Shown: in pieces, positions 75 through 29,501 of the stretch
How positions within the stretch are numbered: position 1 is the stretch's first letter
How the letters are laid out: the number at the start of each line of letters is the position of its first letter
Notes under the pieces: generated by a model
What the model saw: only the letters and a program-made list of their open reading frames with translations
What the model was told of the DNA's origin: nothing
Databases searched by the model: none
DNA from: a virus
Length of the DNA: 32,928 nt
Reading direction: 5' to 3' (one strand)
UHGV virus genome: UHGV-0143082
Made by a program: the position numbers and the translations under genes

Positions 75-3023
75 TTAGTGCTTCCCTTCTATTAAGTCTA
101 ACCTAGCTTTTATTCTTTCTATTTCTCTGCGCTGCCATGCCGCCTCGATATAGAATAAGAGATCAGGTCTGACCCCCCATCTAGATCCTGCTGGCGTTAT
201 TTCAACGCGCTCAATGATGTCTTCCATTACCATCACTGGATTATCATCCTCATCAACAATGATGCTCCCGTCATTATCAGTCAGCGGTATTTCCCTTTGG
301 CCAGTAATGACGTCATCATATACTGCGGGATAATCGTCATAGCAAAGAAAGGCATAGCGGCATGTTGTGCTTTCTTCTTCCATGAGTCCGTGAGAAATAA
401 GAACATCACGAAGTTGCTGCGCGATTACACCATGATGTATCCTCGCCCCTTCTTCCCCCTTTATAGCGACAGCGTTCAGCCATTTATAAGCGATATACCT
501 GACGTCACCCCAGGCATCCAGCAATGCTTCGTCAGGAGAGACCGCCTCTGTCTTTAATGTTCCGTCACTGGTAACCACAGGATTGGAGCCAAGATAAACT
601 GTCGAGAACCTGTTTCCCGGACCACCAAGAGCATTTACATTATCAAGATAAGGTTTAACATCTCCGTTCTCAAAAAGATGTTCGAGTGCGTTATATACCG
701 CGCGACGTGGAGTACTGCTTCCGGAACCATGCAACGTTATCATTGCGCCATCTGCTGAAGACGTTGTTTCACCGCCGCTAACGATTAATCTCTGAGCGGT
801 AACATCATCAGACGGTACTTTCTTCGCAATAATGGCGTAATTACCCTCAAGTTTGACTTCCGCGCGAACTTGTCCTGATGTACCTGCATGGACAGTCAGT
901 GACTGGACGGCAACATCATCTGTGAAATCAACGGGTACAGGAACCGTCCTCACGCCTGACGTCGACATAAAAGTAGGAAGCGTTCTGTTAGGAGTGGCTC
1001 CGTAGACAAAATCCCTTGAAACAAATTCTTCCTGTTTAATTTTCACCCTGAAACAATACAAATCAGCCGGGTGACCATCGTGAACATAAGGATATTTTCT
1101 GTTGTTATCCCCTATGCTCCATGGGTTTAGAAAGTCTTCCCCACCGAAAATGTAGTACAGCCAGTTGTCTTTGATACAAACTGAACCAACACCAACCGCA
1201 GAGTTAACTATTCCGCCCTGATAAATCTGATCAGTAACATTAACCCACTCTACATTATCCAGACTCCACTCATTGACGTTAACTCTGGTCATAAATGTTC
1301 TTGGATAATTTCCTGCATAACGGTTATCAGGTTCTCCTCCTTCCCACTCACCAAATGCGCGCTCACTGCCAAAAATAATCAGCTCATCGCCAACTTTGGC
1401 AAAAGGAAGGTTTGAGTGATGAACATTATTTGGGAAGCGAAGAGAATTCCATGATGTACCTAAATCAGAGCTTCTGTGCAATGAACTACCGGGTTGAGTA
1501 CTTAATGTCCCCCTGGTCGTCAGATACAGAATGCCATCATAATATTTTACACATGGCTCAGATGCATTCGCCTCATATTCTGCAGGTATGCGTCTGCGAA
1601 CAAAGCTACCAGGAGAACCGAAAGCATCAGAGAAATAGAGTATCCCAAGCTCGCGTGGACCAATATCACCATTATGGTAGCCAACAGCAAAACTGTTATC
1701 GCTAATCGTCGCAAAACTGTGAATCTCAGTAACAGGAGTGCTTCCGTCAACAAAAGAAGAAATAGTTCCAAGACTGGTTTTTCTCCATGGTGACGAGTGA
1801 AATGATGTACCAAAACTCCAGTATCTACCCTCGTTATTCTGATCCACATCCTGAGTATTTTGCGTCGTAACTGTAAAAGTATTTTTATCAATAACAGTAG
1901 TCACCGTCATATTCCCGGTAACACCTGTAACACCAGAGTTTGAGAAGTTGACAAAATCACCAGCAAATAATCCGTGATCAGTAATGCGAATATAAGCGAC
2001 TTGCTGATTTGCTGCTTTCGTTATACCACCATAAACGCGAAGGCTGCGACTCATTGGACGATCCCACAACTCTGCAACCTGCAGTTTATTTCCGCGCACG
2101 GTCCGCGTCTCAATTACAGCAAAAAGGCGATTTCTGACAACCCCCATACTCATGCAGTGATAGTTAACTGTGGGATAGTTTTCATGTAAATCTGTAAGCC
2201 ATTCCGGCGTTGTCCAGGTCTTCCCGTCATCTCCTGAGCGAACCCATGCAACATGGAGGTTATTTACACCATGGCGGTCTCCAGCCATAAAAGGCGCATA
2301 GATGACATTGTCATATACAAACGTTTTATCCTGCGTCCAGGCGTTGTACCACGGTGTATCTGTAATTTTAAATAACTCTCCTTGGATAAAATCTTCAGAA
2401 GCATAAAAAAGAGGCTGACCCGGTATTCTCTCAAATAAAAAACGAGCATTTTTAAATCGACTGACATCTGGAAGAGTTGATACTTTAAAAGTAAGCCCTC
2501 GCCCATCTATCTTTTCACCACCTGTTGCAACAGAAAGTAATTCTGATAGAGCTGATGTATCATCATGAACACCATCACCAATAGCCCCCCAACCTCTTAC
2601 ATCATAACTGTCTCTCCATCTTGCTATCTGAAGTTTTGGGTATTTATTCGCTCCATCTGGGTCTTCTAATTGCTGTCGTAACTGATCAGGATCATACTTC
2701 AGCACATTCGGAAAATAGAACTGCTGCACACCGTACGCATCATAAACAGCCATAGAATGGCCCTGTACAGTAACGAATTTGGCAATCTGTCCGTTATATA
2801 CCGGATATCCAGCAGCGTTAATGATGATTGGTTGCGATACAGGAACGTGAGAGCCGTCTTCGTTCTCCACATAAACCTGAATCTGGTTTTCAGGATTTAC
2901 AGGGTCAGTGTCAATTTTACCGATATAAATTTTACCATTGGCTACGGCTTTAAAAGAACGAGCCATAGTGAAGAGTTGCGAAGGCATACTCACTACAACA
3001 TTGGCATTTATTGAATCTGTCAT
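75..3023 (-). CDS. Tailspike protein: P22 gp9-like head-binding N-terminal domain fused to endosialidase-like body with C-terminal intramolecular chaperone domain
   Basis: 982 aa; N-terminal ~115 aa closely resemble P22 tailspike ([45 protein letters not shown]); two Asp-box motifs SGDDGKTW and SSDLGTSW; C-terminal region resembles the self-cleaving chaperone of endosialidases. Confidence 0.8.
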
Positions 3024-3123: not shown

Positions 3124-4059
3124 TCAGTAGTTATGTACTGAAGGAGGTAATTCTTTATTCTTAAGTCTCATCCATGCGGAAAGATTCGTTGGTCCGTCTG
3201 GCTCATTAATATCAACATCTCGTGTGTGGTTTATTAAAACGTCTCTCGCCATTCCGATAACATACGAGAACTCATGACCGTAGTCGTAGCATCTGCCGGA
3301 ATAGTTCGATTGAATTTGTTTTAATGCCGGATACAGTTCGCGGAATAATGCCTGTGAACGGTTGGCATAATCCCATAGCCATACAAGGCTGTTTGCTTCT
3401 TTTGCAGAAAGCTCGTTGACTTTCCTCTCTTGTTTGCCGATGAACTCTCCTTCAAGCGGAACGCGAGCTGCAAGTGACAGTGCTTCGGTAAACTGCTCCT
3501 CACTAATTTCTTTGTACGAACATCCAAAATGGGATTTCAGTGACGACCACATGGTGATCATCGCCTTAGCCTGTTTTTCTTTTGGCAGAGACTGACCGCG
3601 ACTCATGACGAGTTGTTTAATGGCTTCCTGCTGTTCAGTGGTGATTTTACCCTGCAACGCCTTTTTAGCTTTGCGTGGGTTAACTACATGGCCTTTAGTC
3701 CAGTAGTCATGCAGCACGCTAAAGCATTCCTCCTGGTACTGAATCAGTTTATCACGGATGTCAGCACGAACTTTCTCAGGGTTGATGCTGAACAGCCATC
3801 CATTTAACTTCTTCAAAGGAAGGCAGAGTAGCTTACGAAGCTTCCCATCAGCGGCAACCATGTTCATATGAACACAGTTGAATTTGCTAATCTGCTTCAT
3901 GAGTTTTGTTTGCTGCGTTGACCAGCTCATTCCAAGGTTTTCAACGATTGGCTTCATCGCAACATATGCAACTCCGGCAGCCATGGCGGTGATAATTTGC
4001 TGACCGTTGAATGGTACGTAAGAGGTGTTCACTGCTTCTAAAATTGCTATACTATTCAT
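3124..4059 (-). CDS. ant: Antirepressor Ant
   Basis: N-terminus [21 protein letters not shown] resembles P22 Ant; sits between arc and tailspike as in P22 immI. ORF-track start at 4089 is a TTG; the ATG at 4059 with upstream GGAGA is preferred. Confidence 0.75.
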
Positions 4060-4130
4060 GTTGGTTTTTCTCCAAGGATTTACCGACAACCGAAGCCCTG
4101 ACTGTTACCGCAGTTGGGGCTTCAACTTTT
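4060..4130 (+). ncRNA. Candidate sar-like antisense RNA covering the ant ribosome-binding site
   Basis: Extended -10 TGcTATACT at 4045-4053 on +; predicted start about 4060; hairpin 4092-4123 (gaagccc/gggcttc) followed by U-rich tract; arrangement mirrors P22 sar. Confidence 0.3.
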
Positions 4131-5439: not shown

Positions 5440-5451
5440 GATTTCTCCTTA

Positions 5452-5483
5452 TAAAAAACCCACCTGACGGTGGGTTAATTTTT
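5452..5483. terminator. Bidirectional rho-independent terminator
   Basis: aacccacc-tgac-ggtgggtt stem-loop flanked by an A-run upstream and a T-run downstream on +. Confidence 0.55.
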
Positions 5484-5566
5484 GCATTTACCTGGGCCAT
5501 ATTGACTACTTATAAAATGAGATCAATATTTAATCGCCCAATAACGGGTGTATGTTGAGGTATATC

Positions 5567-5746
5567 ATGGCGAAAAAACCAGGTGAAAACACAGGAAAAA
5601 ACGGCGGAATATACCAAGAAGTTGGCCCACGCGGCGGTAAGAAAGACAATTTTGCCACCGTCAAGGACAACGAAAGGCTTCCGCCAACAACAAAGCCAGG
5701 TCATGGCTGGGTATTGGATAAGCGAACTCCAGACAGCAAAAAGTAA
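5567..5746 (+). CDS. YjzC-like small protein (recalled family resemblance, uncertain)
   Basis: KKPGENTGKNGGIYQEVGPRGG...PGHGWV pattern; GAGG 6 nt upstream of ATG 5567; ORF-track start 5552 is an in-frame alternative. Confidence 0.45.
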   Translation: MAKKPGENTGKNGGIYQEVGPRGGKKDNFATVKDNERLPPTTKPGHGWVLDKRTPDSKK

Positions 5747-5751
5747 TAATC

Positions 5752-5775
5752 AAGCCGGTTCACTCCGGCTTTTTG
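5752..5775 (+). terminator. Rho-independent terminator after the YjzC-like gene
   Basis: aagccgg-ttcact-ccggctt stem followed by TTTT; overlaps the stop codon of the convergent gene. Confidence 0.5.
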
Positions 5776-6125
5776 ATATGTCGCTCGCAGAACTCAACAA
5801 GCCTGCTCATTAAGTAGCAGTAAGTCTCGTTGGCTCTTCCTGGTTCAACATCAACACCTACCCTTGAGCAGATATCGAATGCCATGTGAGCGCACTCATG
5901 GGCAATAGTAGATAGTTTGCCATTGAACACGCCTATCACATGCAAAACACCATTCTCGCTACTCATTGTATGAGACGCTCCGTTGGCGTCCGAGTCATGC
6001 ACGTCAACGCCAAGTTTTTGATGCAGGCGTTGCCATTCTGGAAAGTCTCTACAAAACACAATTGTACCGCTCTCAAAGAGCGGAACGAGCATCTTTGGTA
6101 CGTTTCCAATGTTAACTTTTTTCAT
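5760..6125 (-). CDS. Putative zinc metallopeptidase-like protein (HExxH motif), unknown function
   Basis: Motif IAHECAHMAF; ORF-track start 6137 is GTG, the ATG at 6125 (MKKVNIG) with AGGA upstream is preferred; located where P22 carries sieA. Confidence 0.5.
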   Translation of the reverse strand: MKKVNIGNVPKMLVPLFESGTIVFCRDFPEWQRLHQKLGVDVHDSDANGASHTMSSENGVLHVIGVFNGKLSTIAHECAHMAFDICSRVGVDVEPGRANETYCYLMSRLVEFCERHIKKPE

Positions 6126-6155
6126 GGTATCCTGCACAAAACTAAGGAGGTTGGT

Positions 6156-6344
6156 GTGAAGAAAAAATTTGTAAACGTTGCAAAGTGCGCAATTTTTATA
6201 TTTTTTATGACCTTTTACGGATTTAGTGCCGGAGAAGGTTTCGATCGTGATGCCAATGCATTCAGTTTCTTTTGTCTGTCTATAGTGGTCATAATTGTAT
6301 GGGTGGAATTAAAGCAAACATTGTTTCATGTGCTAGGTAAATAA
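6156..6344 (+). CDS. Small membrane protein (62 aa), unknown function
   Basis: Strong SD TAAGGAGG 5 nt before a GTG start; two hydrophobic segments; corresponds to the 3' third of ORF-track 5940-6344. Confidence 0.4.
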   Translation: MKKKFVNVAKCAIFIFFMTFYGFSAGEGFDRDANAFSFFCLSIVVIIVWVELKQTLFHVLGK

Positions 6345-20265: not shown

Positions 20266-20712
20266 TGTTGGCTCCGTTTATCCGTTAAAAGGGATATCAG
20301 TTAAGTTATCCCGTGTAGGGTATAAGCCATTGTCGAGACCACTCATTGAATGGTCTCTGCAATAACCGATGTCTTTCCATCAGTCCGCCACCACAAAGAA
20401 TCTTTTTTGCCATAAGGCAGGAGGTTCATCTTTCAGTGGCTGCCAGTGTTATTTTCCCACTTTCTGGCTTGGGTTGTTTCGCTGTACTGCCGTAACTGGT
20501 TACCCAGAATAAATTCCGGTTTCATTATCAAGCCCACCCGTAGATGGGCTTTGTAATGAACTGGCTCTTATCTCAACGCAGCCCCTTACCGCGCGCCAGA
20601 TGCTCAACTTCAAGCATCAGCAATGAGATGTTTAATCTGGATTCACTCCAGAAGTGATCACCACCCTGTCTACAGAGCCAGATGTGAAGGATGATGAGTA
20701 AAATTATCGCTA

Positions 20713-21150
20713 TCATCGAAGGCATTGCGTCCTGATGTATTCCTGCAAGTAGTTAACCTGCGCGGTTATCCTGTCGATTCCACTTCGGAGACGGTAATAA
20801 TTGAGTTCAGCATCTGCTGTAAGTCCTGGGCTTTCTCCATCGCCCATGCTGCTGGCTCCGGTCGTTGACTTTGCACAGGTGGCGGCGACTTGCAGGCGCT
20901 TACGACCAGCAGAAACATCAGCACGGAGACTTTCGATAGTCGCGTTAGCATCAGCAAGTTCCTTTGTATATCTTGCGTCGAGTTCTGCTACATCACGTTG
21001 ACGCTTCTGCATATCAGCGATGATGGATGTGGCTTTATCGCGCTGTTCTTTGTAGGCGATGGCGTTATCACGGTAATGATTAACAGCCCATGACAGGCAG
21101 ACGATGATGCAGATAACCAGAGCAGAGATAATCGCGGTGACTCTGCTCAT
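20713..21150 (-). CDS. Rz: Rz i-spanin
   Basis: N-terminal TM anchor [30 protein letters not shown] matches lambda Rz; overlaps endolysin stop. Confidence 0.85.
20766..20957 (-). CDS. Rz1: Rz1 o-spanin lipoprotein embedded in Rz +1 frame
   Basis: Lipobox-like VVSAC followed by proline-rich segment, entirely inside Rz; true start may be an internal Met. Confidence 0.55.
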
Positions 21151-21623
21151 ACCTCAATCTCTCTGACCGTTCCGCCAGCTTCTTTGAATTTTGCAATCAG
21201 GCTGTCAACCTTATGCTCGAACTGACCGTAACCAGCCCCCGGCAGTGAAGCCCAGATATTGCTGCAACGGTCGATTGCCTGACGGATATCACCGCGATCA
21301 ATCATCGGTAAAGCGCCACGTTCCTTAATCTGTTGCAGTGCCACAGCGTCCTGGCTTTTCGGAGAGAAGTCTTTCAGGCCAAGCTGCTTACGATAGGCAT
21401 CCCACCAACGGGAAAGAAGCTGGTAACGTCCGGCTGCTGTTGATTTGAGTTTGGGGTTTAGCGTGACAAGTTTGCGAGGGTGATCGGAGTAATCAGTGAA
21501 TAGCTCTCCGCCAACAATGACGTCATAACCATGATTTCTGGTTTTCTGACGTCCGTTATCAGTTCCCTCCGACCACGCCAGCATATCGAGGAACGCCTTA
21601 CGTTGATTATTGATTTCCACCAT
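21147..21623 (-). CDS. R: Endolysin, lambda R-type lytic transglycosylase
   Basis: 158 aa; [53 protein letters not shown]... matches lambda R nearly residue-for-residue from memory. Confidence 0.9.
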
Positions 21624-21930
21624 CTTCTACTCCGGCTTTTTTAGCAGCGAAGCGTTTGATAAGCGAACCAATCGAGTCAGTGCCGATATAGCCGATGAAC
21701 ACGCTCGTTATATAAGCGAGATTGCTACTTAGTCCGGCGAAGTCGAGAAGGTCACGAATGAACCAGGCGATAATGGCGCACATCGTTGCGTCGATTACTG
21801 TTTTTGTAAACGCACCGCCATTATATCTGCCGCGAAGGTACGCCATTGCAAACGCAAGGATTGCCCCGATGCCTTGTTCCTTTGCCGCGAGAATGGCGGC
21901 TAACAGGTCATGTTTTTCTGGCATCTTCAT
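21607..21930 (-). CDS. S: Holin/antiholin, lambda S-type with dual-start Met1-Lys2-Met3
   Basis: 107 aa; [41 protein letters not shown]... matches lambda S107. Confidence 0.9.
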
Positions 21931-22650
21931 GTCTTACCCCCAATAAGGGGATTTGCTCTATTTAATTAGGAATAAGGTCGATTACTGATAGAACAAATCC
22001 AGGCTACTGTGTTTAGTAATCAGATTTGTTCGTGACCGATATGCACGGGCAAAACGGCAGGAGGTTGTTAGCGCAGCCTCTTGCCACCCGCTTTCACGAA
22101 GGTCATGTGTAGAAGGCCGCAGCATAACTATCACTGATGAATTCAGGATAGCCAGTGGCTACGGCTCAGTTTGGATTGTGGCGACCGGTGCTGATCTCCG
22201 GTTTGCTGCAACTGCCTACAGCGGGCTACGTGGCCACACCGAATCCAGCGAAAGATTCTTGCCCTTACACATCAGCCTGTGCATTCACCACAACTGAAAG
22301 AGCACTTGCGGAGTCGAACCGCCTTGGCTTCTAGAACTTTCGCATATAGCTAATCGCTAGTCTCCGTCACCAGTAATGCTCTTTCCGTTGTGTGCCCATT
22401 ATTAATCACACCGGGCCAGTGCGCCGAATTTGTTTACAAGGAGTCGGAAGACCTTGCTGACTTACAGGCTATTACGCCGCCATCAGAACAACATCATCGT
22501 TTGCATTTATCTTTGTGGTCAGTTTCTAAAAAACCGCAAAGTCGCCAACTCTGACGAAAACTATCGTTGTGCTGCCACAACGATAAGAGCACTCGGTGCA
22601 TTTAAGCCAAGCCCCATAAGGGAGAATGCTCTTACCTGTTACACAGATAT

Positions 22651-22709
22651 AAAAAATCCCGAAACCGTTATGCAGGCTCTAACTATTACCTGCGAACTGT
22701 TTCGGGATT
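22651..22709 (-). terminator. tR' late terminator
   Basis: aatcccgaaac...gtttcgggatt stem followed by TTTTTT on the minus strand, same as lambda tR'. Confidence 0.7.
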
Positions 22710-22843
22710 GCATTTTGCAGACCTCTCTGCCTGCAATGGTTGGAGTTCCAGACGATACGTCGAAGTGACCAACTAGGCGGAATCGGTAGTAAGCGCCGCC
22801 TCTTTTCATCTCACTACCACAACGAGCGAATTAACCCATCGTT
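22651..22843 (-). ncRNA. pR' leader transcript (lambda 6S RNA equivalent)
   Basis: About 193 nt from predicted pR' start to tR'; sequence matches the lambda pR'-tR' region from memory. Confidence 0.55.
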
Positions 22844-22878
22844 GAGTCAAATTTACCCAATTTTATTCAATAAGTCAA
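22844..22878 (-). promoter_or_regulatory. Late promoter pR' with Q-utilization (qut) region
   Basis: On minus: -35 TTGACT (22873-22878), 17-bp spacer, -10 TAAATT (22850-22855); about 43 bp downstream of the Q stop. Confidence 0.65.
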
Positions 22879-22920
22879 TATCATGCCGTTAATATGTTGC
22901 CATCCGTGGCAATCATGCTG

Positions 22921-23544
22921 CTAACGTGTGACCGCATTCAAAATGTTGTCTGCGATTGACTCTTCTTTGTGGCATTGCACCACCAGAGCGTCATACAGCG
23001 GCTTAACAGTGCGTGACCAGGTGGGTTGAGTAAGGTTTGGGATTAGCATCGTTACAGCGCGATATGCGGCGCTTGCTGGCATTCTTGAATAGCCGACACC
23101 TTTGCATCTTCCGCATTCTTTCTCAACAACTCTCCCCCACAGTTCTGTTTTGGCTATATCAACCGCCCGACCTGTACCGTGGCAATCTCTGCATCTTGCG
23201 CCCGGCGTCGCGGCACTACGGCAATAATCAGCATAAGCGAATGTTGCGAGCACTTGCAGTACCTTTGCCTTAGTATTTCCTTCAAGCTTTGCAACGCAAC
23301 GGTATTTCCCCGATACCTTGTGTGCAAATTGCATCAGATAGTTGATGGCTTTTTGTTTGTCATTCTGGCTGAGTTCGTGCTTACCACAGAACGCAGCCAT
23401 TCCAAATCCGGCTTGTGATTGCGCCATCCCCATAGCAGCCATCACATCAGTACCGGAAAGAGAGTCAGAAGCCGTAGCCCGTGGTGAGTCGCTCATCATC
23501 GGGCTTTTTGGCGAATGAAATTTAGCCACGCTTTCGAGTCTCAT
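22921..23544 (-). CDS. Q: Late antiterminator Q (lambda type)
   Basis: 207 aa; [34 protein letters not shown]... with zinc-finger Cys cluster; matches lambda Q from memory. Confidence 0.9.
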
Positions 23545-24206
23545 GCGCCTTCTCCCTGTACTTGAATCAATGTGAGGTTTCCGCAGAACACTGCGCCGGT
23601 ATCGATATACATCTGGTTGGCAAACTTGAGTGGTTTCACTGCTGGCGTATGACCAAAGATGAACGTGTCCGCGCCTTTGATTTCTTTCACGATCCCGTCT
23701 TGTGAGTTGCTGATTCGTTCGCGGTTCCAGATTACCTGCTGATGATCAACTGGCTTTCCAAACTCGTATTCGTCACAAGGATAATCGGCGTGGCAGATGA
23801 CATATTTTTTATCTTTGCTCACCAGTTCGATGATTAACGGAAGTTCATCTGCTTTATGGGCAAGAGCTTTAGCCAGAATTTCTTTGTCGTAATCGAGATT
23901 AAAGAACCAGCCACCGCCATTAAGCAGCCAGTGATTGACGTTTCCACGCTCTGATAAGCCATCAATCATCATTTGCTCATGGTTTCCACGTACAGCTCTG
24001 AACCAGGGGGATGTGATTAATTCCAGGCATTCGACGTTCTCTGTACCGCGATCAACCAAATCGCCCACCGAGATAAGCAGGTCTTTTTTGGTGTCGAATC
24101 CTATCGTCTCCAGTTTTTTCATCAGGTTCGTGTAGCATCCGTGCAGATCGCCAACTACCCAAATATTTCGGTATTTGCTGCCATCAATTCTTTCGTAATA
24201 GCGCAT
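23541..24206 (-). CDS. ninI: Ser/Thr protein phosphatase (lambda NinI/PPase)
   Basis: From ATG 24206: [28 protein letters not shown]...GNHE; metallophosphoesterase motifs GDLHG, GDLVDRG, GNHE; 221 aa. Confidence 0.85.
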
Positions 24207-24390
24207 CTCTTTCACTCCATCCGCGATGAACCATAAGAACGTCGTTGACGATGGCGTGCATTTTCCCGTCTTTATCATCAACGTATTTTCTGACCGTGCC
24301 GCGACTACATTTCAGTCTGCGTGCTACTTCTGTCTGGTTTCCGTATGCTTCAACGAGCATGTCTGGAATGGTTTTTACTGAGAACGTCAT
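24184..24390 (-). CDS. ninH: NinH
   Basis: 68 aa [37 protein letters not shown]... matches lambda NinH. Confidence 0.85.
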
Positions 24391-24989
24391 GCGGCCTCAC
24401 TTCTGCTGTTTCGCAGGTCTTTGAGTTTCTGCTGATACTCCGCCTTGATGGCCCTGCACTCTTCGACAGTCCAGCGATGGCGGTTATGGTTTGATTCGAT
24501 TTCGTCTACTGCTTCCTGCCCGATGCGGCTAATCAGTTCGACGCGATACGGAACGAGATTCCCGCTTTTGTGCTGGTTGCACACCACGCATTGCTTGTGA
24601 ATATTGCGTTCATCAAATCGGAGTTGAGGCGCCGCAGCAGTTGTCCGGTAATGCCCGGCATCCCACTGAGCAGACGTGAGCGTTCCGCACGAGATACATG
24701 GTAAGTCGCGGTCTCTTTCTCTGATGAAGGCGTTTACAGCTTGTTGGGCTTGTTTAATCCAGTAACTGCGGGGCTTTAAGGCGAGTTTTCGAATCTTAAG
24801 TTTATCTTTCTGTTTCTGCTCCTCTCGTCGTCGTTTCTTCTCTGCTGCCTTTTCCGCTTTTTCGCGTTCTTTGCTTCGTCGTTCGAGTGCTATCTTGGTT
24901 CCACAAATCTCATTACACCAATATTGATTTTGATATTTTGGTATAAACCATTCATTGCAACATTTACATTTCCTTCGATAGATTCGCAT
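24387..24989 (-). CDS. ninG: NinG (Rap-like recombination endonuclease), N-terminally remodelled
   Basis: From ATG 24989 (strong SD AAAGGAG): [15 protein letters not shown]... then near-identical to lambda NinG from [18 protein letters not shown] onward. Confidence 0.8.
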
Positions 24990-25530
24990 AAGTGCTCCTT
25001 TCGTTGCCGGAAAAATCACCGTAATACTTATCTCGGGCTTCTTCAGCAACTAGTACCGCTAACTCCAGATCATCAAAGCATCCGAAGTGTTTACTCTTGC
25101 CATGGAAACCTAGCCTAACATTCCATTTTTTCTGTCGTTTGTGCCAAGTAACTCCTCTGCAACCTGATTTGCTATTCTTTCGGATCCTTATATTTCTTGA
25201 ATTTTCTATTGGCAGGCATTCTCTTAAATTTTCTGGCCTATTGTCGGTCCTAATTCCATTAACGTGGTCAATTTGACCAGCAGGCCAACGATTATGAGTT
25301 ATGTAAAAAACTAAGACGTGAGTTTTATATCTACGCCCATCTATCATGATCATTGAATAACCGTTGGAATCAAAAGTTCCAGCAACACTATTTAATGCTA
25401 TCCTTCCCTGAGTGGGAACTTTCCATCTAAATACCCCGGTAGATTTATCGAAACTTAGTAACTCAAATATCCTTTTAACAGTTAAATCTTCTCTTTTACG
25501 GTTACATCGTCTTCGCGCTGGTTTAGCCAT
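24964..25530 (-). CDS. HNH homing endonuclease with AP2-like DNA-binding domain, inserted at the 5' end of ninG
   Basis: 188 aa; HNH motif [16 protein letters not shown]; AP2-like [17 protein letters not shown]; first 29 nt identical to the lambda ninG start (MAKPARRRC) before an AT-rich insert. Confidence 0.75.
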
Positions 25531-25693: not shown

Positions 25694-25872
25694 CTTGTTT
25701 TCCTCGCACGTTCTCTAAGCCACCGGATATCCCACAGGTGAGCCGTGTAGTTGAAGGTTTTTACGTCAGATTCTTTTGGGATTGGCTTGCGTTTATTTCT
25801 GGAGCGTTTCGTTGGAAGGTATTTGCAGTTTTCGCAGATGATGTCGGTGATACTTCGTCGCTGTCGCCTCAT
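25690..25872 (-). CDS. ninE: NinE
   Basis: From ATG 25872: [60 protein letters not shown]. Confidence 0.7.
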
Positions 25873-26396
25873 GCCGCCCTCCTGACGCCCTGCCCGATCG
25901 CCATCAATGCCGCTTTGGATACGGTAGTAAACATCCGTCGAGGACTGATGAACGGTCGCCAAATCAGCAACATGGAACCTTTGCTGTTTCCCTTCTTCTC
26001 CAGCCCTGTCGATGGTTCGATAAAATTAATCCGTCCATCAGTGATAATGCGAACTTCGTCGACACTCTCCAGAGCCTTGCTGAACCATCCGACTGACATA
26101 TCCTCTGGCACAAGCATAACTACCGTCTGTCGCTGTTGTATGCACTGCTCAGCGGCTTTTTCCACCCACGGCCTGATATTGCTGTACGGTGGGTTATTCC
26201 AGATTGCACCGTGGCTTATCCACTCAGAATTTAGCGCGTCGTCAGCCTCAGTTAGCCAGTGAGCGCACAGAGCATTTTTGTCGCTCGCTGCCGAATCCAG
26301 CCAGAATCCAAACTCAATATCCAGTGCATCAAAAAGCCAAAGCGGCGTTTGCCAGCAGTCCTTGTCGTGTGCTGGTGTATTTGATTTGATAGTCAT
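25869..26396 (-). CDS. Phage DNA N6-adenine methyltransferase (Dam-type)
   Basis: 175 aa; catalytic motif WNNPPYSN (NPPY); sits where lambda has ninC/ninD. Confidence 0.8.
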
Positions 26397-27129: not shown

Positions 27130-29022
27130 TTAATACTCCGTCACGTTTTCCTGTCGCCACGCCTCGTCATATTCCGATTTCGGCATATTGGCGATGTAGC
27201 TATATGGCGATCCTGATTCAAGTTGCAGGAACTGGTGCGATTGCTCGTCAAGGAACAACGGGACACCACCTTCCCAACCTTCGCCGTTACGTTGTTTTTC
27301 AAGCATCAAAACAGATGCCGGAGATGCCAGTAGCTGTTCGTCCTTCTCTGACATCTTTTCACCACTCTGAACTCTCTGTAACGCTCTCTCGCGAGCCTTG
27401 TTACGCCAGATGATGAAAAGGTTGTCTGTCAGGTCTGTTATCGCTCCAGAGCCTTTTACGTCCATTTTCCCGGTTGGTTTTTCTTCGCTGTCTCCTTTTC
27501 TGGAGTGAGTAACGAGAATGACGTGGGAGTTTGTTTTGTTTTTGAAGTCGCAAATCGAGTCAACAAACGCCTTCTGCCCGTTATAGTCATCGTCGCCTAT
27601 GCCACATTTCATCAGGCTGTCGATGATGAATAACTGGATCCCGTATCGGCGGCGAGCGTAGTCGAATATTTCGATCAGCCTGTCGGCTTTCGCCGTTCCG
27701 GTCAGGCCAAACACCCAAAGTCTTTCGTCATAAAATTTAAATGCAGAGTCAATTTCCAGCACTGGCGGCATCTTGCAGCACGTCGCCTGACGGGTAAGGC
27801 GCTTAAGGAGAATACCAGGCTTCAGCTCAAGTGACGCGATGCACGTCTTCACACCCTGACGCATTGCCTCAAGTGCCATATGCCCGACAACCTCCGTTTT
27901 TCCGTGACCGTTCACACCATTGACCAGCGTCAACTCGGCCTCACGGAACTGGAATTTATCTGCCAGAGATTCCCACGGTGGATTAAACAGATACTGCTGC
28001 TTGCCGTAGAAAGCGTTGATAGTGTCCTGGTAAAACTCTCGCGCGCTGTAGAGTTCTTCAGGATCGAAGTAGGATGCCGTGCCGATGTACTGCCAGATTT
28101 CATCCTCGGTAACACCGTTCATCAGGCATTCGTTGATGTCTTTGTACGGCAGAGTAACAAGACGGCAACGATGTTCACCGAGTCGGCTTGCGATTTCCCT
28201 TGCGGCTTCACGACCAACATCATCAACGTCCATCGAGATGAATATTTCCTCAAACCTGTCGAGGTTGTGATACTCAAACTCAATCCACTGCTGCTTAGCG
28301 CCTTTCCCGCCACCAAACGGTACGGATAACGCCGAGATGCCGTATTGCGCATAGCTCATACAATCAATTTCGCCTTCGCAAAGTACAACCGCCCTCACGC
28401 CAGCGTCCAGAGCCTGCCATCCGAACAGACAAGGTTCGCAATCACCTTCTGCCATAATGACTTTCTTCCCGCCCGGGCGCTCAGTGCTGATTCGCTTTAC
28501 CTGCAACAACTCACCATCGCGTTTGTACGGAAGCACCAGAGCATCCAGTTCTCGCTCTCCATTCCACACCTTGCCGCTGACAACCTCGTAGCGCTTTACG
28601 ACTTCTGGCGATATGCCACGCGATTGCAGGTACTCAAGATGGGATTCTGTTCTGGTAACGTAGCGGGCAATTTTCTTGCGATCAGGTCTGGAGAATTTCT
28701 TCTCACGTCTGGCATCGAAATGGTGATCGTCATCCTTGATACCGAGAAATGCTTTCGCTTCCTGCATAGCCTGATGCAGGTTAATTCCTCGACATGCCAT
28801 CCACAAATCAAGCATGTCACCGCCGTCTCCCTCAGCGAAATCAGCCCATTTTTTCTTGCCGCTAAGGTTGACCTTAAGGCTGTTTCCCTTGTCACCGTTG
28901 ACGTTACCGGCAACCCACTCATGCCCCTCTTTCTTGCCGTTTGGCAACAGGTGCGGAGCCACCCTGTCAACCTGCGCCCAAAGCAGGTCGCTAAGTTCTG
29001 ATGGACTCAAAGGTGCCTCCAT
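27130..29022 (-). CDS. Bifunctional primase-helicase replication protein
   Basis: 630 aa; TOPRIM-like acidic segment (VLCEGEIDCMSY) in the N-terminal half, helicase-like C-terminal half. Confidence 0.75.
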   Translation of the reverse strand: MEAPLSPSELSDLLWAQVDRVAPHLLPNGKKEGHEWVAGNVNGDKGNSLKVNLSGKKKWADFAEGDGGDMLDLWMACRGINLHQAMQEAKAFLGIKDDDHHFDARREKKFSRPDRKKIARYVTRTESHLEYLQSRGISPEVVKRYEVVSGKVWNGERELDALVLPYKRDGELLQVKRISTERPGGKKVIMAEGDCEPCLFGWQALDAGVRAVVLCEGEIDCMSYAQYGISALSVPFGGGKGAKQQWIEFEYHNLDRFEEIFISMDVDDVGREAAREIASRLGEHRCRLVTLPYKDINECLMNGVTEDEIWQYIGTASYFDPEELYSAREFYQDTINAFYGKQQYLFNPPWESLADKFQFREAELTLVNGVNGHGKTEVVGHMALEAMRQGVKTCIASLELKPGILLKRLTRQATCCKMPPVLEIDSAFKFYDERLWVFGLTGTAKADRLIEIFDYARRRYGIQLFIIDSLMKCGIGDDDYNGQKAFVDSICDFKNKTNSHVILVTHSRKGDSEEKPTGKMDVKGSGAITDLTDNLFIIWRNKARERALQRVQSGEKMSEKDEQLLASPASVLMLEKQRNGEGWEGGVPLFLDEQSHQFLQLESGSPYSYIANMPKSEYDEAWRQENVTEY

Positions 29023-29501
29023 GCGTTTCCTCTGCGGATTGTGGAAATTTGCATTTCACTCACTCCGTATTTAGTGGATAGTTCGCTTAGTTTCATACCA
29101 ACAGAATTCCTGATATCAATCACATCAGTTTCAGATAGGTTTGCCCTACCATTAAAAACTCCCTTTGCGCTTTTCAGTCCGATGCTAAAAGCATGTTTTA
29201 AATTCTCTGAGCAGGTACACCATTCCAAGTTCCAAATGGCGTTATCCGATTTGTCGCCGTTGATATGATTTACTTCTGGCTTGCAATACGGATTTGGGAT
29301 AAATAATTGAGCTACAAGACGATGAACTTTTAACGTCTTCTGAATCCCATCGGAACACAAAGTGACTCTTAGATAACCCTTGTTATCCGGAGATGGATTC
29401 AAAAACCTGCCTCTTAAATGTGAATAAACACGACCGTCTTTGGTTACAGAGTATTTACCCTCATAACCAGGTATATATTCTCCAACTTCAAGGCTCATCA
29501 T
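29007..29501 (-). CDS. HNH homing endonuclease (NUMOD4-like N-terminus plus HNH)
   Basis: 164 aa; YEGKYSVTKDGRVYS motif; HNH core VNHINGDKSDNAIWNLEWCTCSENLKHA; AT-rich gene; SD GAGGGA before ATGATG. Confidence 0.75.
   Translation of the reverse strand: MMSLEVGEYIPGYEGKYSVTKDGRVYSHLRGRFLNPSPDNKGYLRVTLCSDGIQKTLKVHRLVAQLFIPNPYCKPEVNHINGDKSDNAIWNLEWCTCSENLKHAFSIGLKSAKGVFNGRANLSETDVIDIRNSVGMKLSELSTKYGVSEMQISTIRRGNAWRHL

Follow-up and report, generated by a model that had tools for sequence, protein, structure and literature searches.

Virus genome UHGV-0143082 was analyzed as one stretch of 32,928 nucleotides (nt), hereafter called the window, to which all coordinates refer and in which the late genes are read on the minus strand. 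We describe its late control and lysis region, where a lambda-type antiterminator gene Q, the late promoter pR′ and the terminator tR′ are followed by a leader and the lysis genes S, R, Rz and Rz1, and where a 444-base-pair (bp) block with a module resembling transfer-messenger RNA (tmRNA) lies in the leader between tR′ and S. The features are summarized in Table 1. An earlier sequence-only reading had taken Q, pR′, tR′ and the lysis genes for a lambda-identical cassette embedded in a P22-type late region; the limits that it gave for the cassette coincide with the Rz stop and the Q start and are correct. Overall, the region is very probably best explained as that of a CUS-3-like phage with lambda-type late control, lambda/P22 chimeric lysis genes and a tmRNA-like leader block.

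Table 1. Features of the window (aa, amino acids; identities are to the phage named).
Feature	Position	Strand	Remarks
Tailspike	75-3023	-	K1 endosialidase with P22-type head-binding domain (Head_binding); 97.4% nt to CUS-3
ant-like open reading frame	3124-4089		immI region
sar antisense RNA	4060-4127	+	Rfam RF00262, 97 bits; in P22-type immI region
Surroundings of sieA	5450-6158		98% nt to P22
Rz i-spanin, 145 aa (P22 length)	20713-21150	-	Chimera; Pfam Phage_lysis
Rz1 o-spanin lipoprotein, P22-type	20766-20951	-	Embedded in Rz; ATG aligning with P22 Rz1 taken as start
R endolysin (transglycosylase), lambda-type, 158 aa	21147-21623	-	457/477 nt (95.8%), 155/158 aa to lambda R
S holin/antiholin, lambda-type	21607-21930	-	319/324 nt (98.5%), 106/107 aa (R105G) to lambda S
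Lambda-type leader directly upstream of S	21931-22180	-	96.0% lambda, 98.0% CUS-3, 97.6% E212
444-bp block in place of lambda 44806-44935 (130 bp)	22181-22624	-	Gap between two BLASTN blocks; three-way alignment
Conserved leader hairpin CCGGAGAUCAGCACCGG, then CGCCACA	22201-22185	-
Conserved leader hairpin GAAUGCACAGGCUGAUGUGU	22286-22267	-	Within 22185-22286
Hairpin unit H2, tRNA-like tip	22289-22392	-	18-bp stem CACAACGGAAAGAGCAUU / AGUGCUCUUUCAGUUGUG
T-arm in H2 tip	22323-22308	-	GGCGG-UUCGACU-CCGC
tmRNA-like messenger module	22394-22563	-
Pseudoknot B (H-type)	22422-22394	-
Pseudoknot A (H-type)	22456-22424	-
P5-like hairpin	22486-22457	-	Stop codon in loop
Tag frame	22504-22469	-	ANDDVVLMAA + UAA UAG
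AUAAAU + resume codon GCA	22510-22502	-
Motif UAGUUUUCGU	22563-22554	-	Resembles tmRNA D-loop motif ACUAGUUUCGAC
Hairpin unit H1, variable tip	22576-22640	-	Conserved stem GGUAAGAGCAUU / AGUGCUCUUAUC; 5′ strand is the end of lambda homology
tR′ stem-loop and T run	22708-22651	-	Identical to lambda; intrinsic terminator ~194 nt past start
6S-RNA-equivalent leader with qut, ending in tR′	22649-22842	-	1 mismatch in 194 nt to lambda 44588-44781
pR′ late promoter	22850-22878	-	TTGACT-17-TAAATT; consensus scan; 0 mismatches to lambda 44553-44587
Q late antiterminator, lambda-type, 207 aa	22921-23544	-	Pfam Antiterm PF03589, E 8e-58
Lambda-like continuation: ninI, ninH, most of ninG	23541-24905	-	Within ungapped 2281-bp match to lambda, 97.2%
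HNH endonuclease gene (HNH_3+AP2)	24964-25530	-	Between ninF and ninG
Dam-type N6-adenine methyltransferase gene	25869-26396	-
Toprim/DnaB-like primase-helicase gene	27130-29022	-
HNH endonuclease gene (NUMOD4+HNH_3)	29007-29501	-

BLASTN aligned the region with lambda in two blocks, one ungapped (window 22625-24905 to lambda 44805-42525; 64 mismatches in 2281 positions) and one gapped (window 20902-22180 to lambda 46235-44936; 92.9%). The 444-bp block fills the gap between them, the interval from Q to S being 990 bp in the window versus 676 bp in lambda, so that the lambda cassette is interrupted. The earlier reading had overlooked this replacement. A three-way sliding identity comparison of the window, lambda, and P22 supports the block limits, and the CUS-3 record annotates "boundary sequences" at both sides of the leader.

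Within the block, we identified a tmRNA-like messenger module, composed of a D-loop-like motif, a resume codon preceded by AUAAAU, a tag frame, a P5-like hairpin and two pseudoknots. The tag reads AUAAAU GCA AAC GAU GAU GUU GUU CUG AUG GCG GCG UAA UAG, giving 10 codons and a double stop. In an Rfam scan by E-value, tmRNA_permuted (26.3 bits) and beta_tmRNA were matched over the tag region; a true permuted tmRNA (L008, 124 bits in the same scan) shares this tag region and has the motif that UAGUUUUCGU resembles. At 80% thresholds, ARAGORN returned a low-scoring "tmRNAp" with the tag ANDDVVLMAA and two stops, as well as a "tRNA-Tyr" at ~22382-22298. Homologues of the module were collected from IMG/VR and GenBank phages, and 58 distinct copies were aligned. 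The 10-codon frame AN[DE][DE]xxL[MAIQ][AV]A-stop is present in 58/58 copies, with alanine codons that vary synonymously, and other reading frames are not kept. In the P5-like hairpin and both pseudoknots, 88.9% of the alignment cells were paired, compared with 41-46% in slid controls, and none of 500 shuffles reached the observed score. Eighteen pairs were changed on both sides, helices 3-8 having 3, 1, 3, 3, 1, and 4 such pairs, respectively. This comparative evidence shows the insert to encode an RNA of conserved structure, in which the tag frame is protected.

Several other assignments were considered and rejected. Capture of a host ssrA gene was dismissed, the alignment to E. coli K-12 ssrA being confined to GCAAACGA and UAAUA.CCUG. 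ARAGORN at 80% thresholds also proposed a standard tmRNA in one piece, bounded by the first GAGCAUU (22631) and the last AGUGCUC (22300); this was ruled out because the first GAGCAUU is lambda sequence, because the GAGCAUU...AGUGCUC pairs covary as local hairpins in other loci, and because the RNA in virulent phages starts at the UAGUUUUCG motif. For a two-piece tmRNA, no separate acceptor piece was found elsewhere within the window, which spans less than the whole genome. Pairing of the 5′ part of the module with the inside of H2 amounts to 5 bp here and shows no covariation in PGN829.1, and the prophage small RNA svsR is encoded at the cI end and is unrelated.

Two hairpin units, H1 and H2, lie on either side of the module. 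Their scaffold stems follow the pattern GG[U/A]AAGAGCAUU ... AGUGCUCUUUCC, often lengthened by CACAAC/GUUGUG, and carry variable tips. Compensating stem changes were observed across phage loci (GAGCGCU/AGCGCUC, UGACACU/AGUGUCA, GGUAAUU/AGUUAUC, and GCUGCUU/AGGCAGC) in a search that required pairing, and which therefore shows variety and gives no statistic; similarly, a GCGCA/UGCGC stem of other phages is GCACA/UGUGU here, again with compensation. The sequence GGTTCGANTCC occurs once in the window, in the H2 T-arm. Lambda has its own unit of this kind, with another tip, at 44789-44863 between tR′ and S. This hairpin-unit family (GGUAAGAGCAUU / AGUGCUCUUUCC stems with exchangeable tips) sits exactly where lambda, the window phage, and E212 (MZ043897, another Lederbergvirus) diverge: lambda homology ends precisely in the 5′ strand of H1, and E212 homology restarts precisely at the 3′ strand of H2, the later of the two units. 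As the two homologies stop and restart inside these stems, the stems mark the points of exchange, and a cassette exchange between tR′ and S at the conserved stems (GGUAAGAGCAUU ... AGUGCUCUUUCC), which are also present in lambda, installed the 444-bp block.

With the 444-bp block as query, some 800 widely differing phage records were matched, and the matching stretch was hardly ever annotated. The module alone was found in 758 phage records from unrelated families, including Felixounavirus, Kolesnikvirus, Ackermannviridae, N4-like phages, several siphoviruses, P1/P7, and lambdoid and P22-like phages, and was unannotated everywhere examined. In virulent phages, whose copies are 87-95% identical to the module of the window, it is located inside tRNA gene arrays and has its own TTGACA / -10 promoter, with the RNA start at UAGUUUUCG; the 3′ part varies from phage to phage. 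In Felixounavirus tootiki (an Escherichia phage; L131, 1665-1748), a tRNA-like domain comes directly after the module and has the acceptor CGGGGCG/CGCCUCG, a G3-U70 pair, A73, and an encoded CCA. This domain is located inside a tRNA array, is followed by an HNH endonuclease gene, and receives no ARAGORN call; G3-U70, A73, and CCA are the marks by which tmRNA is identified for alanine. In P7 (L135, ~700-1010), a module with the tag ANDDLMMAAA and one hairpin unit belongs to a C1-controlled operon, in which the C1 operator Op(ban) precedes them and tRNA-Asn and tRNA-Thr follow, while in HK620 the module is located between qut and the annotated late terminator.

The control elements upstream of the block are of lambda type. 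Q is identical to lambda Q at 598/624 nt (95.8%; 26 changes) and in 206/207 residues (G83C), and shares 93.8% nt identity with P22 gene 23. Since P22 gene 23 and lambda Q share 95% nt identity with each other, a lambda-like Q beside P22-type late genes is the norm. No mismatch to lambda was found in the 43 bp after Q or over lambda 44510-44587, from the end of Q through pR′ (-35 to +1). Given this near-identity, we infer that the late switch works as in lambda, including Q-dependent read-through of tR′: Q would load at qut onto RNA polymerase paused after pR′, and the polymerase would then read through tR′ into the late operon. Upstream of Q, the lambda-like DNA continues through genes whose products share 100% (ninH) and 96% (NinI, a Ser/Thr phosphatase with a Metallophos domain) aa identity with those of lambda. 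It ends at 24905/24906 inside ninG, where a 596-bp segment with an HNH_3/AP2 gene adjoins; this gene fills a 596-bp gap between the lambda-like ninF and ninG. Further upstream, we observed a Dam-type N6-adenine methyltransferase gene, a Toprim/DnaB-like primase-helicase gene standing where lambda P or P22 gene 12 would, and a second HNH endonuclease gene between the primase-helicase gene and an O-like replication gene.

Of the lambda S-R-Rz-Rz1 cassette, S and R are present in their lambda type, whereas Rz and Rz1 are not. S is a class I holin that has kept the dual start Met1-Lys2-Met3 (MKMPEKH...). R differs from lambda R by G63A, A139V, and D157E and is unrelated to P22 gp19. Rz as a whole shares 89.7% aa identity with P22 gp15 and 58% with lambda Rz. 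At the informative sites, where lambda and P22 differ, it is lambda-like down to 21073 and P22-like from 21058, which confines the crossover to 14 bp near codons 26-31, where the conserved N-terminal region ends. Rz1 was listed as an open reading frame starting at a TTG (20957), and the ATG start was chosen by alignment to P22 Rz1, with which it aligns over the full length with four differences by eye (K8V, A10V, G16V, and the L7 region); it is unlike lambda Rz1. Rz is thus, by its sequence, a recombinant with a lambda-like transmembrane N-terminus, whose periplasmic part and embedded Rz1 are P22-type. The breakpoint is instructive in that the periplasmic part of Rz stays with its interacting partner Rz1. 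Together, S, R, and the P22-type spanins would bring about lysis after Q-driven read-through. Between Rz and the gene for a DUF2560 protein, an indel was observed at 20501-20549: the 49 bp found here correspond to 717 bp with an open reading frame in CUS-3 (23187-23903), and P22 has rha at this place.

Being located downstream of tR′, the block would be transcribed as part of the Q-antiterminated late transcript. In the window phage, it would thus be produced together with the late operon and then processed, and, less certainly, the RNA may target trans-translation, whether by providing a template or by competing with host tmRNA. As a working model, the RNA would be cut out of the late leader, and the excised RNA would serve as a phage-specified tagging template or compete with host tmRNA. 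Some P22-type hybrid phages are known to depend on trans-translation, as is Mu. The most far-reaching interpretation, a serious possibility though less likely than not, is that the block belongs to a tmRNA-derived RNA family widespread in enterobacterial phages and with a new architecture, in which a promoter-proximal messenger module (a 10-codon degradation-type tag and two pseudoknots) is combined with separate, self-closed tRNA-like domains in long stems.

A number of observations weigh against the tmRNA-like reading of the module. With default settings, ARAGORN found neither a tRNA nor a tmRNA in the window, and the Rfam score of 26.3 bits is below the gathering threshold of 47; the Rfam scan of the window at gathering thresholds gave sar RNA alone and no tmRNA. 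A PK1 pseudoknot upstream of the resume codon has no covariation support, candidate helices 1 and 2 being mostly invariant or poorly aligned. The acceptor-like stem of H2 (GAGCAUU/AGUGCUC) is closed locally, without a G3-U70 pair and without an encoded CCA, and alanine charging of the H2 domain is for this reason doubtful. The promoter in virulent phages leaves no 5′ acceptor strand, and the tRNA-like domain, which surrounds the messenger part in all known tmRNAs, does so in no case here, so that the topology differs from both known tmRNA forms. Finally, the copy in a temperate phage could be a decaying relic.

This last point leads to an explanation that we regard as unlikely, though still deserving serious attention, namely that the block is a functionless, decayed remnant of a tRNA/tmRNA island of the sort often present in late leaders of lambdoid phages, kept only because it lies between recombination-prone conserved stems. 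The tRNA-like hairpin without alanine identity or CCA would fit such a remnant, as would the 3′ part that differs between phages and the fact that the related temperate phages E212, lambda, and CUS-3 manage without the block. However, all helices of the module and the full tag frame are intact, at 87-95% identity to copies in compact virulent genomes, and the substitutions are compensatory or conservative. It is less likely still, and in our view improbable, that the role of the block is confined to cis action on the late transcript, as a processing site or a stability or terminator-like element tuning S-R-Rz, with a tmRNA likeness that is purely historical. Its location in the late operon's 5′ leader, the perfect 18-bp stems that are predicted to be RNase III-type substrates, a hairpin followed by UUUU at 22586-22557, and the placement of the HK620 copy would all suit a cis-acting element, but the module also occurs as an independent promoter-driven unit in the tRNA arrays of virulent phages, far from lysis genes, and the conserved peptide frame would be left unexplained.

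With regard to the cassette itself, the strict form of the earlier view, in which Q, pR′, tR′, S, R, Rz, and Rz1 were recently inserted as a whole and essentially lambda-identical between P22-type genes, is already refuted, and we give it hardly any credence. In its favor, a match described as residue-for-residue holds for the Q, S, and R proteins (1, 1, and 3 aa changes), for pR′, and for the 6S/tR′ segment; it does not extend to the DNA, Rz, or Rz1. The genes share 95.8-98.5% nt identity with lambda, each thus diverging by 1.5-4.2%, and 0/595 matching phage records reach 99%. Moreover, Rz from about codon 30 onward is P22-type, as is the whole of Rz1, contrary to the lambda type assigned to them, the 444-bp block is unlike lambda, and the lambda-like DNA runs on to 24905. 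The same S-R-Rz segment is also found in CUS-3 and E212. Comparison of CUS-3 (CP000711) with the window gave nt identities of 97.4% in the tailspike, 95.4% in the head genes, and 97.0% over 20550-22200 (Rz, R, S, and the proximal leader), and E212 is 97.3% identical over 20550-22306 and 96.3% over 22625-23555. Over 21074-22180, the window is 97.1% identical to CUS-3, 97.7% to E212, and 96.8% to lambda, while in the P22-type part of Rz the values are 97.4% (CUS-3), 96.0% (E212), and 94.3% (P22). With some 97% identity to CUS-3 and E212, the S-R-Rz segment is therefore a standing cassette of E. coli P22-like phages and no fresh lambda transfer. A "recent modular exchange" with lambda is likewise not supported, the divergence being 2-4% throughout, and judged by these identities there is no sign of recent transfer from lambda. 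Alignment to lambda and P22, the check that had been proposed, did locate the junctions of a mosaic of both, with identity to lambda below 99% and Rz/Rz1 of P22 type. The junctions are sharp, as had been expected (the Rz breakpoint falls within 14 bp), but are sited at 24905/24906 and 21073-21058 and not at the cassette ends. P22-type flanks were found for the terminase and head genes, whereas the upstream flank consists of lambda-type nin DNA. The cassette is an ordinary, familiar lambda-type/P22-type mosaic, and we found no counter-evidence of weight to this part of our explanation. It adds little by itself, being one more case of module shuffling among lambdoid and P22-like phages, with breakpoints now placed to a few bases. 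Least probable of all, and close to negligible, is the suggestion that the conserved 10-codon frame is an ordinary small protein gene, as it lacks both a start codon and a ribosome-binding site and begins, tmRNA-like, at the GCA after AUAAAU; an alternative frame opening with ATG varies in length, and the surrounding RNA structure covaries.

Based on the tailspike, a K1 endosialidase close to that of CUS-3, the window phage is a CUS-3-like, K1-specific, P22-like temperate podovirus, and it is probably a prophage. The packaging and head genes have the P22-like order gp3/gp2 terminase, portal, scaffold, coat, gp4, gp10, gp26, gp14, gp7, gp20, and gp16, together with the tailspike, and the small terminase is of gp3 type (GP3_package domain). 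Using tblastn with the P22 late proteins, a match was found for every one except the scaffold, at 29-93% aa identity. The values are 92% for TerL, 93% for gp10, and 93% for gp14; the portal (35%) and coat (29%) are both of the divergent CUS-3 type. In addition, we observed the sar antisense RNA and an ant-like open reading frame in the immI region, and a segment around sieA with high identity to P22 (Table 1).

In the tmRNA database papers, phage tmRNAs are listed solely for mycobacteriophages and Bacillus phage G (PMC4131195), and in the 2025 update, which includes RefSeq viruses, DS6A is the sole phage mentioned and none was added for enteric phages (PMC11915505). Literature on tmRNA in connection with HK620, Felixounavirus, Ackermannviridae, and P1 yielded ARAGORN citations only, in a search of incomplete coverage that is no proof of novelty; as far as it reached, the RNA family is undescribed. 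If functional, this RNA would give many phages a means of their own for redirecting or blocking host trans-translation, which in the window phage would be switched on with the late genes. A conserved tag-encoding RNA shared by hundreds of coliphages and salmonella phages in their tRNA arrays would open a direct way to ask whether, and by what means, phages reprogram ribosome rescue, and the phages concerned include ones used in therapy and biocontrol.

Compared with known systems, the region follows the lambda late region (NC_001416, 42525-46050) in the order ninG-ninH-ninI-Q-pR′-qut-6S-tR′-S-R, but lambda has its own leader (44806-44935) and lambda-type Rz and Rz1, and the window has no bor, no lambda head genes downstream, and an HNH endonuclease gene upstream of ninG. 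P22 resembles the window in the distal part of Rz and in Rz1 (94% nt), in the terminase subunits (88% nt), in gp10 and gp14, and in the sieA and immI region with sar RNA; it differs in its endolysin gp19, which is unrelated to the R of the window, in a short late leader, in rha after Rz, and in a portal and coat that are merely 35% and 29% identical. Both CUS-3 and E212 share with the window the S-R-chimeric Rz/Rz1 segment at 97% and the overall late gene order. E212 also has the lambda-type Q, pR′, and tR′ (96.3%), whereas CUS-3 has another Q type, another nin region, and an additional open reading frame between Rz and the DUF2560 gene. Neither of them has the tmRNA-like block, E212 having just 40 bp in place of window 22307-22624.

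Shiga toxin (Stx)-converting lambdoid phages such as 933W carry a tRNA island (ileZ-argN-argO) downstream of pR′. The block of the window resembles these islands in lying past the late promoter/terminator and ahead of the lysis genes and in its translation-related content, but contains no canonical tRNA by ARAGORN and has a tmRNA-like module and tRNA-like hairpins instead. With tmRNA (SsrA), and especially its permuted beta-proteobacterial form (RF01850, RF04321), the module shares the AUAAAU-GCA context, a 10-codon tag of the form ANDD/ANDE...AA, a double stop in a P5-like hairpin, pseudoknots after the tag, the D-loop-like motif, and a T-arm nearby. It differs from tmRNA in scoring below the family thresholds, in showing no similarity to the E. 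coli ssrA sequence past the first codons, in having only two pseudoknots after the tag, and in the self-closed tRNA-like hairpin that lies 3′ of the messenger part.

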